From Aeropyrum pernix K1 (GTDB lineage Archaea; Thermoproteota; Thermoprotei_A; Sulfolobales; Acidilobaceae), in contig NC_000854.2 of the NCBI RefSeq assembly GCF_000011125.1, forward strand, positions 540,001 through 572,000: a DNA stretch of 32,000 nt. Direction: 5' to 3'. The translations under genes were made by a program, and so were the position numbers. This document shows positions 2,607-9,979 of the stretch, piece by piece (position 1 is the first letter of the stretch; the number at the start of each line of letters is the position of its first letter). The notes under the pieces are model-generated. The model searched no databases. It saw only the letters and a list, made by a program, of their open reading frames with translations, and was not told where the DNA came from.

Positions 2607-2684
2607 GGGCCCGTCGTCTAGCCTGGTTAGGACGCCGCCCTTACACGGCGGAGGTCCGGGGTTCAAATCCCCGCGGGCCCACCA
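2607..2684 (+). tRNA. tRNA-Val (anticodon UAC), CCA encoded
   Basis: Cloverleaf read by eye. Acceptor stem is GGGCCCG/CGGGCCC and the D arm is GTCT...GGAC. The anticodon stem CCGCC/GGCGG carries loop CTTACAC, with anticodon TAC at 2642-2644. The T arm is CGGGG-TTCAAAT-CCCCG, followed by discriminator A and CCA at 2682-2684. A TATA-like CTATAAG lies about 40 nt upstream. Confidence 0.9.
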
Positions 2685-2794
2685 GCGCATCATACAGGAG
2701 CCCCCTCCTACAATCACATAAACAACCAGCTACCCACTCGGTTTCTCAACCGGACATTCAATCTGCTATACGGTTGTTATACGCCTCTGGCTCC

Positions 2795-4132
2795 ATGGAA
2801 GCGTATAGCAAGAATAGTACCGCCGCTCCAAGCAGTAGTCACGCCGAGGGGGAGAGCACGGCCGATGTCCTGGGCTATGAGGGGGTAGAGGTGCTCCCCG
2901 AGCCTAAGGACGTGCCGCAAGAGGCTAGACGCCAGCTTCTCAACCTGTTGGCCGAGAGGGGGAAAGTAAAGCCCTCGACTCTCGGTGTGAGCCGCGCATA
3001 CTTCTACCAGATGCGGAGGGGGCTACGCCCCATATCCGACTCTATCCTGGAGAGGCTTCTGGAGCTAGCTACTGACGACGACCTGGCCGGAATCCCCTTC
3101 TTCGCTCCCTACGTAGACTATCAGCGGGTGAAGGGTTACGATGTGGATAGGCTCGTTAGGCTGGTAGCCGAGTGGGCGAGGGCTAACCCTGCTAGCGCTA
3201 AGGTGTTCTTGGATAGCCTTTCAGCGGAGCTGGAGCGCCTGGGGCTCGTTGGGAAGGCTATCAAGGTGTCAGAACGGCATGTTAGGGAGTTTGAGGGCTA
3301 CCTCGAGGCGAGGGTTAGGAGCGGGGACATGGATCCCGGGACGGCGGGAGATAGGCTTAGGTACCTCAGGATGGCCCTCGAGGAGCTGGGCTACGTCCTG
3401 ACCAAGCAGGCTTTAAGGGGTTTAATAAGGAGGTATCAGGCCTCCCAGCCCGGCGTCGCAGATCACATATACAAGTCACTCAAGCTCTTCGTAAAGGAGG
3501 TGGTCCAGGACAGGGAACTCCTGGAGGCCATACCCTACCCGAGGGTTAGGTGGGGCAGCCCGGAGGCGCCTCAATGGAGTGATATATGCAGGGTCGTAGA
3601 AGCTCTCCCACACGCTGGTGCCCCTAGGGCCCTACTCCTGCTATTGGCATCCACAGGGCTGAGGGTCGAAACAGCCTACTCTCTACCGCTAGACTCGCTA
3701 AAACTCTCTGAGAGGCTGGTCTGGGTCTGGAGCCTTAAGAGGAGTAAGAGGACCTACTTCTCCTTCATAACCGAGAGGGTTAAAGGCGAGCTGGAGGTGT
3801 ATCTGGAAGCCAGGAGGAGGCACCTAGAGATCCTGGGTAGGGGCTCGGGCAAACTGTTCCCCTACAAGCCCCGGAGGCTCAGGGAGGCTATCTACGAGGC
3901 TATGGATAGGGAGCTGGGCCGGAGGTTCCAGCTGAAGCTCATTAGAAAGCGGGTGGCGGAGCACCTGAGCCACCACCTCTCAACCCTGGAGCTGAACGTG
4001 ATAATGGGCCACGCCCCGAGGGAGGTCGTGGAGAAGCACTACCTCCTCAGAGACCAGATCGAGGACCTCCGCAGAAAATACGACAAGGCTATGGCTAAGG
4101 TGCCGTGTCTAGGCGGAGGTGAGGCGGGATGA
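2795..4132 (+). CDS. tyrosine recombinase / integrase with N-terminal HTH
   Basis: The C-terminal catalytic domain shows ASTGLRVETAY (Arg), KLIRKRVAEHLSHH and IMGHAPREVVEKHYL (His and the Tyr nucleophile, tac at 4040-4042). An N-terminal HTH-like segment reads LGVSRAYFYQMRRGL. The track start is TTG 2774; the in-frame ATG at 2795 is preferred. Confidence 0.85.
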   Translation: MEAYSKNSTAAPSSSHAEGESTADVLGYEGVEVLPEPKDVPQEARRQLLNLLAERGKVKPSTLGVSRAYFYQMRRGLRPISDSILERLLELATDDDLAGIPFFAPYVDYQRVKGYDVDRLVRLVAEWARANPASAKVFLDSLSAELERLGLVGKAIKVSERHVREFEGYLEARVRSGDMDPGTAGDRLRYLRMALEELGYVLTKQALRGLIRRYQASQPGVADHIYKSLKLFVKEVVQDRELLEAIPYPRVRWGSPEAPQWSDICRVVEALPHAGAPRALLLLLASTGLRVETAYSLPLDSLKLSERLVWVWSLKRSKRTYFSFITERVKGELEVYLEARRRHLEILGRGSGKLFPYKPRRLREAIYEAMDRELGRRFQLKLIRKRVAEHLSHHLSTLELNVIMGHAPREVVEKHYLLRDQIEDLRRKYDKAMAKVPCLGGGEAG

Positions 4133-4908: not shown

Positions 4909-5889
4909 ATGGCCGTGCCCCCCGCCTCCCGGGCCTGCCGAGGTGGCGGGGGGCGGGGCTGGGGGTTAGAGATTGTTCTGGCCGATCTTAGGCGGGGCTT
5001 CTCTAACCTCCTCGAGTGGGAGCTCCTCAGTATAGTCGAGCTGAAGAGGCGGGGCCTAGGCCTCTCGGAGATAGCCAAGGCGGTTTACGGGACCAGCAGG
5101 AAGAGGTACAGGGTCTTCCGTATTCTGAGGCGTCTCCAGCGCATGGGTGTTCTCGACTGCCTACTCGAGGGCTCATGTTGCGCCCTGGGTGGGGAAGGCG
5201 ACGGCGGCCATGTTGCGCCTGCCGAAGATGCGCAACATGAAGGCGACGACGGGAGCGGGGAGGCGACATCGGAAGCAACATGGGAGGGGCTGCCTGGGAG
5301 GCTGGGGAGGACTCAGAAGCTTGTCATAGCGGCTCTGGCTATCCAGCTGGAGGCCACGCCCAGCATGATAGCTGCCTACGTCAACCATGCATACGGGAAA
5401 CGGGTTTCCCGGAACGCTGTGTGGCACGCCCTCAAGAGGCTGTCAGCCCGGGGTGTCGTTGAGAGGCTACCCCGGGGCTACTACAGGCTCCGCAGGCTCT
5501 CCAGCGGCATCCTGGTGGAGAACCTCAGGGTGAGGGGTCGCATGGTATGGAGCACGAGAGAGGAGGGTAGGCCAGCCACGCTGGAGGAGGCGTTAATAAC
5601 GGCGGCACTCAGAGACAGGACGTGGCCCGTGGAGCAGGCGGAACTCCTCTCACACGGCCCCCGCAAGCTGCTGGAGAAGGCAAGGCTGCTCGAAAGGCTG
5701 GGCTGGAGAATGACGGTTATGTATATAGACAGGAAGAACGGCGCCCCCAGGCTGAAGCTGGAACACAGGCTCTGGAACACACCCATACCGGCAAGGCCGG
5801 AGGAGCTATACTCATGGGTAAACCTATACAGGGAAGCCTCATCACTGGCAAGAGACCTCGCCGAACACATACTAGCGCGCACACGCTAG
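4909..5889 (+). CDS. DNA-binding protein with two (w)HTH-like domains (candidate regulator or replication/partition factor)
   Basis: LLSIVELKRRGLGLSEIAKAVYGTSRKRYRVFRILRRLQRMGVL is a LuxR/sigma-r4-like HTH. MIAAYVNHAYGKRVSRNAVWHALKRLSARGVVERLPRGYYRL is winged-helix-like. Palindrome copy 2 lies in its 5' part. Confidence 0.6.
   Translation: MAVPPASRACRGGGGRGWGLEIVLADLRRGFSNLLEWELLSIVELKRRGLGLSEIAKAVYGTSRKRYRVFRILRRLQRMGVLDCLLEGSCCALGGEGDGGHVAPAEDAQHEGDDGSGEATSEATWEGLPGRLGRTQKLVIAALAIQLEATPSMIAAYVNHAYGKRVSRNAVWHALKRLSARGVVERLPRGYYRLRRLSSGILVENLRVRGRMVWSTREEGRPATLEEALITAALRDRTWPVEQAELLSHGPRKLLEKARLLERLGWRMTVMYIDRKNGAPRLKLEHRLWNTPIPARPEELYSWVNLYREASSLARDLAEHILARTR
4965..5007. repeat. bipartite palindrome copy 2 (intragenic)
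   Basis: Left arm GGGTTAGAGAT, right arm TTCTCTAACCT; offset 35 nt. Inside the 5' part of ORF 4909..5889, read as G-L-E...F-S-N. Confidence 0.8.
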
Positions 5890-6655: not shown

Positions 6656-6699
6656 GATCCACTCAGCTTTTAAAGATAGTGCGTTATACTATATAATAT

Positions 6700-6742
6700 G
6701 TTAGAGAAGGTATTACCGCTATGCTGTGAAGTTTTCTCTAAC
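6700..6742. repeat. bipartite palindrome copy 3
   Basis: Left arm ATGTTAGAGAA, right arm TTCTCTAACAC; offset 35 nt. Abuts the TATA at 6689-6699. Confidence 0.9.
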
Positions 6743-6840
6743 ACGTGCTGGTGGTGTGAGCCCGATGCGAGCCTCGATCATAAATACCGTAGCCATGTAA
6801 CATGACATCTATACTGCTTAGACTTACTCCAAATGAACCC
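6743..6840 (+). repeat. conserved noncoding module, copy A (paralogous to 9437-9535)
   Basis: Shared blocks in the same order and similar spacing after a palindrome copy: GAGCCCG, TAGCC(A/T)TGTAA, TATACTGCTTA (6810-6820 vs 9509-9519) and GACTT. Confidence 0.6.
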
Positions 6841-7021
6841 ACCCCACCTAGAGTTACGGCTTCCGGCCACGATGTAGGGAAGGGAGTTTTCCCTTGTTTC
6901 CAGCCTAGCACCCTCTGGGGAGGTTCCGATTTTATTATTCTAGGGTTTTTCTGGGTGCCTCCTATAGTATTAGGAGTCATGGTGGCAAAGGCTGCATGTT
7001 AGAGTTTCCGATTACGTCGCG

Positions 7022-8005: not shown

Positions 8006-8225
8006 AATAGCGTTACTTCAAAGGGAGCCTTGCACTGCCTACCTATGTAAAACTTTGGTCGTCTTGGGCTCCTTGATTCATTATTTGAACATTATATATC
8101 ACACCCGTTAATCATCGTGTTATTAAAGCTTTGCCAGCTATGGTTGGAGAAGTCAGCTCATAACATACTCAACCATCTCTTTAAACCCTGGATGGGCCCT
8201 GGAGGTTCTGTCTGCTTGCCTGGCT

Positions 8226-8417
8226 GTGGTGGGGCTCGGGGCCCAGGTTAGGGTTTTGAGGGGGTTGTTGGAGCTGTATCATGCTAGGTTGCCCGGCGAT
8301 GTTAAACGCGGTATAGTGGATATGTTGGATGAAGCCGAGGCTTTGAAGGCCGTCTTGAAGCGGGAGCTGGATCCGGTTTTGCGTAGGCTCGGAGACAAGG
8401 TGTTAGAGAACGGTTAG
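8226..8417 (+). CDS. hypothetical small helical protein (63 aa)
   Basis: GC-rich islet inside the AT-rich island. The last codons (GTG TTA GAG AAC GGT TAG) run into palindrome copy 4. Coding status is uncertain. Confidence 0.3.
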   Translation: MVGLGAQVRVLRGLLELYHARLPGDVKRGIVDMLDEAEALKAVLKRELDPVLRRLGDKVLENG

Positions 8418-8445
8418 CCTGGGTTGCCTGTCCTGTTCTCTAACA
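8403..8445. repeat. bipartite palindrome copy 4
   Basis: Left arm GTGTTAGAGAA, right arm TTCTCTAACAC (perfect 11-mers); offset 35 nt. Confidence 0.9.
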
Positions 8446-8473
8446 CCCTGGAGTCTAGGGTCTAGGCATGGTG

Positions 8474-8517
8474 TTAGAGGGAGGCTTTTTGCTCCAAGCT
8501 GGATGCTTTCTATTACT
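8474..8517. repeat. bipartite palindrome copy 5 (degenerate)
   Basis: Left arm GTGTTAGAGGG; right arm TCTATTAC matches 6 of 8 positions at offset 36. Lies 29 nt after copy 4. Confidence 0.5.
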
Positions 8518-8558
8518 CATGTATGATGCATAGTATTAGATGTTTGATAAAAGAATGG

Positions 8559-9350
8559 CTAGCGTTTTTGATGGCATAGATTTAGGGCTTCCTCTGCTAT
8601 TTGTACTAAATAAGTTTTTTGAACAAATCCTACTAATTCATTTATAGTCTTACTTGTTTCTTCCGTTATAGGGTTGTCGAGTTGCTTTAGTAGGATTCTT
8701 GTTCTATCTAGTATTTCTGTTGATCCCGTAGTTTCTGCTGCTCTTTTAATGATCTCTAGAGCTTCTTTTGGTCTTGGCATTGAAAATATATCGTGTCCTT
8801 GGCTGGAGGAGGTTAGTGGCGTAATGGCTAGGGAGCGGCTTTTAATGGCCTCTGGTAGGCCCCAGCAGATGATTATATATCCTTTGAATGGATCACTATA
8901 ATTATGTTTCTTTGCTTCGGCAACAGCTTTAAGGAGCGTTAATAGCGAGGCTGCAATATCTGGCTTCATTGATTCTATTACTTGTTGTTGGGCTAATTCT
9001 CTTGTGTAATAAGCTTGATAGTATATTGCTCCTAGCACGAAGAGAGATATTATTACGCTAATTATAGTTAGCACGCCTGATGTTACATCCCATAAAGGGA
9101 TAAAGCCTTTAATATATAAAAGCCAACTTACTACAATGATGACCAAAGAGACTACAAACAAAATTACACTTACAAGCTTTGGCTTCAGATCCATCATCTC
9201 CCAGAGAATACTTAGACTATAGCAATACCATATTTTATTTTTATGGTTAGAGAAGCTTCTTATATGAGGATTGTAGTTGCCCTCTAACTCCGGATTTCTA
9301 TGCTCTCTTGTAAGGAGTTGTCTCTGCGTCTCGTGGCTCCTGTTAATCAT
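8559..9350 (-). CDS. hypothetical membrane protein (2 TM plus a soluble domain); a short form probably starts at 9197
   Basis: The TM segments LVSVILFVVSLVIIVVSWLL and VLTIISVIISLFVLGAIYY follow the internal MMDLKPK (ATG 9197). A TATA (9231-9244, minus strand) abutting palindrome copy 6 lies about 39 nt upstream of 9197. A second TATA (9381-9390) abutting copy 7 could serve the long form starting at 9350. Confidence 0.55.
   Translation of the reverse strand: MINRSHETQRQLLTREHRNPELEGNYNPHIRSFSNHKNKIWYCYSLSILWEMMDLKPKLVSVILFVVSLVIIVVSWLLYIKGFIPLWDVTSGVLTIISVIISLFVLGAIYYQAYYTRELAQQQVIESMKPDIAASLLTLLKAVAEAKKHNYSDPFKGYIIICWGLPEAIKSRSLAITPLTSSSQGHDIFSMPRPKEALEIIKRAAETTGSTEILDRTRILLKQLDNPITEETSKTINELVGFVQKTYLVQIAEEALNLCHQKR
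9246..9288. repeat. bipartite palindrome copy 6
   Basis: Left arm TGGTTAGAGAA, right arm CCTCTAAC (7 of 8); offset 35. Abuts the minus-strand TATA at 9231-9244. Confidence 0.75.
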
Positions 9351-9393
9351 GGTTGATGGACGTGGCGGTGTCGGGGTGGGTATATAATAAGGT

Positions 9394-9436
9394 GTTAGAG
9401 AATGTTAGGGCACTATGCTGAGGAACCTTCTCTAAC
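9394..9436. repeat. bipartite palindrome copy 7
   Basis: Perfect GTGTTAGAGAA / TTCTCTAACAC; offset 35. Abuts TATATAATAA at 9381-9390. Confidence 0.9.
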
Positions 9437-9535
9437 ACCTACTGTTGGCGCGAGCCCGTGTTGAGTCTTGATCTATCTATGAATGCTATAGCCTTGTAAT
9501 GCATGGTTTATACTGCTTATGACTTCCGCCTCTGA
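9437..9535 (+). repeat. conserved noncoding module, copy B (paralogous to 6743-6840)
   Basis: See copy A. Both modules are preceded by TATA plus a palindrome, and both end near AGTCATGGTG (6975-6984 and 9563-9572) leading into a GTTAGAG half-site or full site. Confidence 0.6.
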
Positions 9536-9571
9536 GTTTTAACTACTTAAAGCCCTAACTCCAGTCATGGT

Positions 9572-9614
9572 GTTAGAGAATGTTTTAGGCGGTTTTGAAC
9601 AGTCGTTCTCTAAC
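9572..9614. repeat. bipartite palindrome copy 8
   Basis: Perfect GTGTTAGAGAA / TTCTCTAACAC; offset 35. Followed by TTATTATA at 9619-9626. Confidence 0.9.
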
Positions 9615-9700
9615 ACCCTTATTATACGTTTCAGGTTGCTCCGTGCTGTTTCCAGTCTTCATCTAGTATGTTGCATGGCGCATATAGTATGTAGGGTGGG

Positions 9701-9979
9701 TTGGTGTCTGTGCATGTGGATAGGTTTGTAGCAGTAGTGGATTATATTATAGATATTGTTGCGGGTGTTTTGATGGCGTTCTTCATGGTGGTGTTTGGCT
9801 GGTTTCTGAAGGGAGCATATGAAGTGCATAGGGCTGGTGCTTGCGATGGGCTCTGCATGAATCTATTTGTTCTGAGCCTGATAGGGTTCATGCTTGCTAC
9901 CGCGCTTTCCCTCTTCTTTTCTAGGTCAATACTGAGGAAGCTAGGGGGTGCAAGTGATGGTCCTAGAGTATGTGCGTAG
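9701..9979 (+). CDS. hypothetical small membrane protein (92 aa)
   Basis: Two or three hydrophobic helices (IVAGVLMAFFMVVFGWFL, LFVLSLIGFMLATALSLFF). First gene of the long plus-strand block, downstream of palindrome copy 8 and a TATA. Confidence 0.5.
   Translation: MVSVHVDRFVAVVDYIIDIVAGVLMAFFMVVFGWFLKGAYEVHRAGACDGLCMNLFVLSLIGFMLATALSLFFSRSILRKLGGASDGPRVCA

Follow-up and report, generated by a model that had tools for sequence, protein, structure and literature searches.

The segment at positions 9198–9700 of the window, which is a 32,000-nt stretch of the Aeropyrum pernix K1 chromosome (540001–572000; the genome has 1,669,696 bases in one contig), lies between two divergent genes of the provirus APSV1 and raises the question of what it controls and through which signal. 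The provirus is present in the window, and an APSV1 coordinate plus 4128 gives the window coordinate. In the GenBank record of APSV1, orf7 (263 aa) occupies 8559–9350 on the minus strand and orf8 starts at 9704 on the plus strand, followed by an uninterrupted plus-strand block to orf35. We conclude that 9198–9700 is probably the two-way control region of an accessory AT-rich orf7/orf8 cassette of the temperate spindle-shaped virus APSV1, wired to a virus-wide regulon.

The signal is a palindrome, of which the segment carries three copies. The palindrome family can be written as GTTAGAGAA-N24-26-TTCTCTAAC. The three cores lie at 9246–9288, 9394–9436 and 9572–9614 with start-to-start distances of 148 and 178 nt, exactly where the first-pass annotation of this DNA had placed them. 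The TATA-like box that it had claimed next to each of the three was found as well (Table 1). These A/T boxes stand 1–2 nt off the outer end of the 11-nt arms, and the 3–6 nt separating arm from TATA are C-rich. The full pattern has six exact matches in the window, compared with none in 100 shuffles.

The palindrome is concentrated in the virus. Its core, GTTAGAG-N26-32-CTCTAAC, has 14 matches in the 1.67-Mb genome, and all 14 fall within nt 317–26324 of APSV1; none was found in the last 11.7 kb of APSV1, which holds a methyltransferase, a glycosylase, small regulators and the integrase. Consistently, 25 of the 38 genomic occurrences of the 9-mer GTTAGAGAA are in the provirus, for which 0.9 would be expected by its length. 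When 351 genomes of the host's class were scanned, clustered full-length copies were found in a second Aeropyrum genome (G053) and in eight others (G065, G078, G079, G086, G088, G090, G091 and G093), all of the same family. The pattern read backwards, used as a control, matched in 3 of the 351 genomes with one match per strand in each. The palindrome clusters lie in APSV1-like integrated elements from at least five further genera, and the related loci that were fetched carry an SSV-type integrase together with homologues of orf1, 2, 3, 6, 9, 11, 12, 14, 18, 29, 34 and 44–46. Among viral contigs, the pattern was matched in 15, once in each and never in a cluster, and these were judged to be chance matches. 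Full-text literature searches found no paper with the motif; the original APSV1 paper was outside their coverage.

The conservation of the palindrome was analyzed in a pooled set of 43 copies, for which arm positions 8 and 9 had not been among the selection criteria. These two positions are A in 85/86 and 80/86 half-sites, respectively. Ten arm changes were found in the set, all of them one-sided and none compensatory. The spacer is 25 nt long in 18 copies, 26 nt in 16, 24 nt in six, 23 nt in two and 30 nt in one, so that 40 of the 43 spacers fall within 24–26 nt. The spacers of the pooled copies showed no sequence conservation and no composition bias; their centre is neither A/T-rich nor bendable, and a slight dyad symmetry was seen only beside the arms. 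As RNA at 90 °C, the hairpin of the arms has a positive ΔG (+0.8 to +5.7 kcal/mol). Because the arms are invariant, the spacers free, the changes uncompensated and the hairpin unstable, these results point to sequence-specific recognition of two half-sites at a fixed distance on duplex DNA, and not to a hairpin.

Copies inside genes point in the same direction. Five elements share a palindrome at one position within the 5′ coding region of their orf3 homologue (window 4965–5007, and the related loci L027 12210–12253, L028 15622–15665, L029 5913–5956 and L032 2726–2768). It is read in two frames among the five, as V-R-E...S-L-T or as L-E...F-S-N, and the selection is therefore on the DNA element rather than on the peptide.

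The palindromes are linked to promoters. A TATA-like octamer starts within 10 nt of an arm in 21 of the 43 pooled copies, compared with 10.9 ± 2.8 for random placements in the same loci (P about 0.0005), and the TATA-proximal arm is better conserved than the distal arm. In APSV1, the core of seven copies ends 30–58 nt ahead of a start codon (orf2, 30 nt; orf32, 31 nt; orf36, 32 nt; orf7 long form, 43 nt; orf4, 44 nt; orf7 short form at ATG 9197, 48 nt; orf14, 58 nt) and that of two more 75–89 nt ahead (orf34, 75 nt; orf8, 89 nt), all starts being the annotated ones except that of the short form. A TATA-like box lies between core and start in most of these cases. The archaeal promoter box is found about 26 nt ahead of leaderless starts (PMC6028130), and on this measure the leftward boxes, 31–36 nt ahead of their ATGs, would give short leaders, in agreement with the leftward starts proposed in the first-pass annotation. 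The geometry of palindrome, TATA and start thus fits leaderless or short-leader transcripts firing away from the palindrome. The rightward unit at 9570–9626, which the annotation had pointed into the structural-gene block, is backed by an orthologous palindrome and TATA box preceding the orf9 homologue in the second Aeropyrum genome. Taken together, the motif is virus-specific far above chance, its half-sites are kept while spacer and flanks drift, and its sites stand at core promoter elements of several transcription units, as in a set of operators.

We infer that a protein binds at the palindromes, and the three promoters of 9198–9700 would then share one design. Each would consist of a 43–47-bp operator with two inverted 9-bp half-sites GTTAGAGAA, the centres of which are 34–35 bp apart, and the inner half-site would end 1–5 bp from the TATA box, at the position of the TFB recognition element (BRE). 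A tandem pair of these units would fire leftward to ATG 9350 and ATG 9197 of orf7, and one would fire rightward to orf8 and the long replication/structural block. The operator would be read as double-stranded DNA by a sequence-specific, virus-encoded regulator, and the same regulator would act at about ten further sites within the first 26 kb, so that the transcription units would be switched together. The same operator at all three promoters suggests co-regulation rather than mutual exclusion. We lean towards a dual, position-dependent mode, in which the regulator would act positively, or by competition for the BRE, where its site is upstream of TATA, as at all three promoters here, and would be a repressor at sites that cover the start point, as in the orf6-like genes of the relatives. 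Archaeal activators such as Ptr2 and TFB-RF1 usually sit directly upstream of BRE/TATA, and at the palindromes the BRE would be weak, given the C-rich 3–6 nt that separate arm and TATA.

The small orf6-like genes of the relatives show this second layout. Their TATA box lies outside the palindrome and the open reading frame (ORF), counted from its first start codon, begins in the spacer. A protein bound at an orf6-type palindrome would sit astride the start point, a layout that is clearly repressive. Translation of the inner arm gives F-S-N, and a further palindrome lies over the 3′ end of the gene, where its arm encodes V-L-E-N. Each of these genes is thereby bracketed by two palindromes (L027 8434–8807; L028 10378–10635, 11697–11968 and 13265–13560), and G093 has three such bracketed units in 3.6 kb. 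In APSV1 itself, a decayed palindrome GTTGGAGAA...CTCTTTAAAC was observed upstream of orf6 (window 8143–8230). The ATG of the orf6 homologue in G053 is CTG in APSV1, and APSV1 orf6 may therefore be truncated or decaying.

Several observations weigh against a virus-wide promoter operator and its positive use. The TATA boxes are near consensus, which is as compatible with repression as with activation or more so, and the arm extends over the BRE position, where a bound protein could exclude TFB. For a simple dimer, a distance of 34–35 bp between half-sites is unusual. A TATA box is lacking in about half of the pooled copies, among them four to five that lie inside APSV1 genes, and promoter control therefore cannot explain everything. 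The binder is also not picked out by co-occurrence: neither orf3 nor orf44 tracks the palindromes so closely as to stand out alone. Homologues of orf3 with the same recognition helix were found on two contigs without the palindrome, and homologues of orf44 are missing from several palindrome-bearing genomes. The orf6 family was rejected as a regulator, its confident model (pLDDT 85) being a plain three-helix hairpin with no significant fold match.

Four APSV1 proteins have DNA-binding domains, and all four (orf3, orf45, orf48 and orf44) are candidate binders. The orf44 protein is an ArnR1-like winged helix (E = 5e-61) identical to PDB 2PG4, orf45 is MarR-like, and orf48 is a ribbon-helix-helix protein. 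The orf3 protein has two helix-turn-helix domains; its predicted model is poor overall (pLDDT 58) and only the winged-helix part is informative, matching Fur, MarR, PadR and PhiH1-repressor domains. In five palindrome-bearing elements orf3 accompanies the integrase, and the palindrome is in its 5′ coding region in all five. The orf44 and orf45 genes are divergent winged-helix genes with a 140-bp intergenic region outside the window (APSV1 34064–34202, genome 578192–578330). This region has four TATACTCTA(G/T) repeats within 80 bp around a TATA-like box, including a perfect inverted repeat TATACTCTAG-AAC-CTAGAGTATA. In the counterparts, G078 has a related motif and G065 a different large inverted repeat. 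Judged by this classic switch-like layout, the orf44/orf45 pair appears to be a better candidate for the switch of the virus than 9198–9700.

The region looks like an accessory acquisition of the APSV1 lineage by comparison with its closest relative. In G053, an orf6 homologue, two tandem palindromes, a TATA box and an orf9 homologue follow each other, the space between the genes being 173 bp in all. APSV1 is about 1.4 kb longer there (about 8545–9960) and carries orf7, the three palindromes and orf8; this block is missing from the G053 element, and orf8 is absent from L027. The indel has its left breakpoint behind an old TATA remnant (about 8545) and its right one where orf9 starts (about 9960–9970), both outside the palindromes. 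A decayed second palindrome precedes the left breakpoint (Table 1), and the plus-strand block, 19.6 kb from orf8 onward, is now headed by the palindrome at 9570–9616 and its TATA box. From this arrangement, the difference looks like an insertion in the APSV1 lineage with the old promoter decaying afterwards, which suggests that arms remain perfect only while in use.

The new control region has a paralogue nearby. The sequence at 9381–9525 matches 6690–6825 with 70.7% identity over 147 nt (E = 5e-10), and 6690–6825 comprises the TATA box, palindrome and upstream sequence of the neighbouring divergent pair orf4/orf5. The TATA box and the start codon are 33 nt apart at orf4 and 31 nt apart at ATG 9350. 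Given this paralogy and the equal TATA-to-start distances, the AT-rich island would be built of divergent membrane-protein cassettes, each with a portable two-way promoter bearing the virus operator. The GC content of the island is 0.42–0.44, compared with 0.55–0.67 in the plus-strand block to the right, and the composition boundaries of the APSV1 AT-rich islands lie at about 5890, 9950 and 28718. The comparison of orf5 and orf7 led to their rejection as paralogues. Ahead of a TATA-like box of orf5 (window 6873–6945) there is a possible decayed rightward palindrome, ATGTAGGGAAG...CCTAGCACCC at about 6873–6913, which mirrors the 9570–9626 unit. Both paralogous spacers also hold a tiny plus-strand ORF (6768–6803 and 9460–9501; 11 and 13 codons) ending in ...N-(T/A)-(V/I)-A-(M/L)-stop, with few and conservative differences that may be due to chance.

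The number of orf7 promoters in use depends on the orf7 start. The first-pass annotation had proposed two tandem leftward promoters for a long and a short isoform, which the architecture makes plausible; its observations that ATG 9350 and ATG 9197 share one frame and that the short form starts at the transmembrane domain (MMDLKPK, with the hydrophobic stretch directly after) were reproduced. It had also stated that the segment has no convincing ORF. This is right for 9439–9569, where none is convincing, and needs a caveat for 9198–9350, which GenBank annotates as orf7 coding sequence. Two tandem promoters giving two protein forms are possible from this arrangement. We give somewhat better than even chances to the explanation that only one orf7 promoter is real, in which either 9198–9350 is plain coding sequence of a 263-aa protein and the palindrome at 9244–9290 is intragenic, or translation starts at ATG 9197 and the distal unit gives a long leader. 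The long form is favoured by the GenBank annotation, by the absence of a stop codon from the 69 in-frame codons that precede ATG 9197 (shuffles, P about 0.05), by a TATA-to-ATG 9350 distance equal to that of the paralogous orf4 promoter, and by the intragenic copies at other places of APSV1. The short form is favoured by another gene call of 212 aa, by the A/T-rich box at 9230–9244 adjoining an intact proximal half-site, and by the codon composition of the extension, which has GC1 = GC2 = 0.35, unlike the five neighbouring genes compared (GC1 > GC2). Against a single promoter, both units show the promoter geometry of the family, and sequence alone dismisses neither.

The protein products of the cassette do not look like regulators. 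A DNA-binding domain was looked for in orf7 and orf8 and found in neither. The only match of orf7 among 5.8 billion proteins was its own 212-aa form, and a Pfam search with it gave no match; orf7 is an ORFan accessory membrane protein. The orf8 protein has a sub-threshold Pfam match to DUF996, which is not a DNA-binding domain.

This bears directly on the switch or immunity region that the first-pass annotation had seen here. Its multi-operator region between divergent genes has held up, and its switch has not. A switch would have the three operators choose in a bistable manner between transcription to the left and to the right, and thereby between lysogeny and virus production, and divergent promoters, three operators within 370 bp that differ in quality (one degenerate, two perfect) and the position at the head of the long plus-strand block all speak for it. 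In a lambda-type switch, however, a flanking gene encodes the binder and the region is a conserved core element of the virus lineage; here the flanking genes encode membrane proteins, and the block of about 8545–9960 is missing from the G053 element. The same operator is moreover found in the same position on both sides, which argues against opposite regulation of the two directions, and it recurs at 11 other places, the region is paralogous to the control region of orf4/orf5, and the separate pair orf44/orf45 has its own four TATACTCTAG repeats in 80 bp, which change along with the proteins in the relatives. A switch at 9198–9700 is thus quite improbable. The same low probability is given to palindromes acting as hairpins of RNA or single-stranded DNA, such as terminators, processing sites or signals for replication or packaging. 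Their arms are perfect inverted repeats that would be stable at 37 °C (−6 to −12 kcal/mol), and some of the copies are found immediately 3′ of a gene, at the end of orf6 and, in G065 and G078, after orf44 homologues. However, the arm changes are uncompensated, the loop has a fixed length and a free sequence, and the positive ΔG applies to the growth range of the host, so that neither the compensated stem nor the stability under growth conditions of a structured RNA or REP-like element was found. No oligo-T tail follows the arms, Rfam gave no match, and the three copies here lie between divergent genes with nothing to terminate. A structured RNA in 9439–9571 was rejected as well: the segment between the perfect operators had no Rfam match and a folding z-score of +1.4.

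The least probable, though only by a small margin, is that the palindromes are recombination or mobility sites, similar to integron attC sites or the ends of miniature elements, by which related viruses exchange accessory cassettes. The AT-rich cargo regions of APSV1, G093 and G078 are densely populated with copies, the indel relative to G053 is situated amid palindromes, the control region occurs in duplicate, all elements have a tyrosine recombinase, and the arms loosely resemble the attC motifs GTTRRRY / RYYYAAC at 6 of 7 positions. Against this, neither breakpoint of the indel lies in a palindrome, no copy falls on a composition boundary of the AT-rich islands, the arm motifs come in the opposite order to those of attC and extrahelical bases are lacking, the cargo genes are in both orientations rather than co-oriented, and copies also occur inside conserved genes. 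Unlikely as well, though somewhat less so than these three explanations, is a looped hub of the silent provirus, folded by a bridging architectural regulator that docks at the palindromes. Hi-C has shown 19 chromosomal loops emanating from APSV1 (PMC10769869). If there were such a hub, these loops would be anchored at the 14 sites, among them the intragenic ones that lack a TATA box and the dense cluster at 8400–9616.

For the regulon reading, the closest functional parallels appear to be the F55 sites of SSV1 and the p4 sites of phage phi29. The sites of the SSV1 repressor F55 in the T-lys system of this Sulfolobus fusellovirus were reportedly described by Fusco et al. in J Virol 2013 and 2015. 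SSV1 is likewise a temperate spindle-shaped archaeal virus with an SSV-type integrase, and one virus regulator, which in APSV1 is predicted, acts on a repeated motif near core elements of several viral promoters. The F55 sites differ in that they are tandem direct 11-bp repeats at four promoters overlapping TATA/BRE or the start site, whereas the APSV1 sites are inverted 9-bp half-sites 34–35 bp apart at 14 places, mostly upstream of TATA. The likeness is functional, and no sequence similarity is claimed. The phi29 p4 sites are also spaced inverted repeats with a long non-conserved spacer and several copies between divergent promoters, and it depends on their location with respect to the core promoter whether transcription is activated or repressed, as we propose for APSV1. 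This parallel is a functional analogy only: phi29 has sigma-70 promoters, a 15-bp spacer, another motif and a single control region, while the APSV1 sites are spread over 26 kb. Ptr2 and TFB-RF1 sites resemble the APSV1 arrangement in that the site abuts a weak C-rich BRE upstream of TATA, where recruitment of TBP/TFB would be possible; they differ in being compact sites of host regulators, and with the near-consensus TATA of APSV1 a need for activation is not evident. In the flaB promoter of Sulfolobus acidocaldarius, two ArnR/ArnR1 boxes lie upstream of BRE/TATA (−43 to −84) and both are needed for binding (PMC6396743). APSV1 encodes the ArnR1-like orf44. Each ArnR box is, however, a 15-bp inverted repeat TCGAC-N5-GTCGA, whereas the APSV1 arm is asymmetric, only the pair of arms is inverted, and the sequences are unrelated; a paired TCGAC-N5-GTCGA upstream of BRE is thus not what the APSV1 palindromes provide. 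In addition, the occurrence of orf44 homologues does not follow that of the palindromes, and orf44 has local repeats of its own.

Table 1. Features of the window discussed in the text (window positions).
Feature	Position	Strand	Remarks
Degenerate operator palindrome (copy 6 of the first-pass annotation)	9244..9290		TATA-proximal half-site GTTAGAGAA intact, distal GTTAGAGGG; 25-nt spacer
Perfect operator palindrome (copy 7)	9392..9438		GTGTTAGAGAA-N25-TTCTCTAACAC, 11-nt arms
Perfect operator palindrome (copy 8), predicted rightward promoter	9570..9616		11-nt arms GTGTTAGAGAA / TTCTCTAACAC, 25-nt spacer
A/T-rich TATA-like box, predicted proximal leftward promoter	9230..9244	-	About 36 nt to ATG 9197
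TATA box TATATAATAA, predicted distal leftward promoter	9381..9390	-	1 nt from arm; 31 nt to ATG 9350
TATA box TTATTATA, predicted rightward promoter	9619..9626	+	2 nt from arm
Segment between the two perfect operators	9439..9569		Left part paralogous to 6743–6825
51-codon N-terminal extension of orf7 (GenBank, 263 aa)	9198..9350	-	Coding putative
orf7, short form	8559..9197	-	212 aa, starts MMDLKPK; two hydrophobic segments
orf8	9701..9979	+	Small protein with two hydrophobic segments; first gene of the plus-strand block; in the inserted cassette
Decayed second palindrome and TATA remnant	8471..8545		Left arm GTGTTAGAGGG kept; intact L027 counterpart drives orf9 homologue
Perfect palindrome	8400..8446		Overlaps orf6 3′ end; arm encodes C-terminal V-L-E-N; spacer of L027 orthologue similar
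Paralogous TATA and palindrome unit of orf4	6688..6742	-	orf4 is an M48 peptidase (Pfam M48 match)
tRNA-Val gene	2607-2684		
452-codon ORF next to tRNA-Val	2774-4132		Matches integrase regions of related loci

Two further observations concern the provirus as a whole. The 452-codon ORF would mark the integration junction, and together with the tRNA-Val gene (window 2607–4132) it corresponds to the split-integrase junction expected of an SSV-type provirus; the element of G053 is integrated at the same tRNA-Val. A partial second homologue of APSV1 orf9 lies elsewhere in the genome (1421479–1421643; 53% identity over 55 residues). Protein searches with orf9 and orf10 against viral contigs gave no match.

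Gene control in hyperthermophilic archaeal viruses is known from only a handful of cases. If the regulon reading is true, most promoters in the first 26 kb of a temperate virus bear one and the same sharply defined DNA signal, and this signal is unchanged in related proviruses of several genera. If the hub were true instead, accessory cassettes would join it by carrying the palindrome in a portable two-way promoter. The half-site spacing of 34–35 bp poses a concrete structural question. The segment 9198–9700 is the most compact test object, with three operators of two strengths and three TATA boxes in both directions in a 500-bp fragment, and it gives a handle on the identity of the regulator, on the silencing and switching of the provirus and on the wiring of newly acquired accessory genes.

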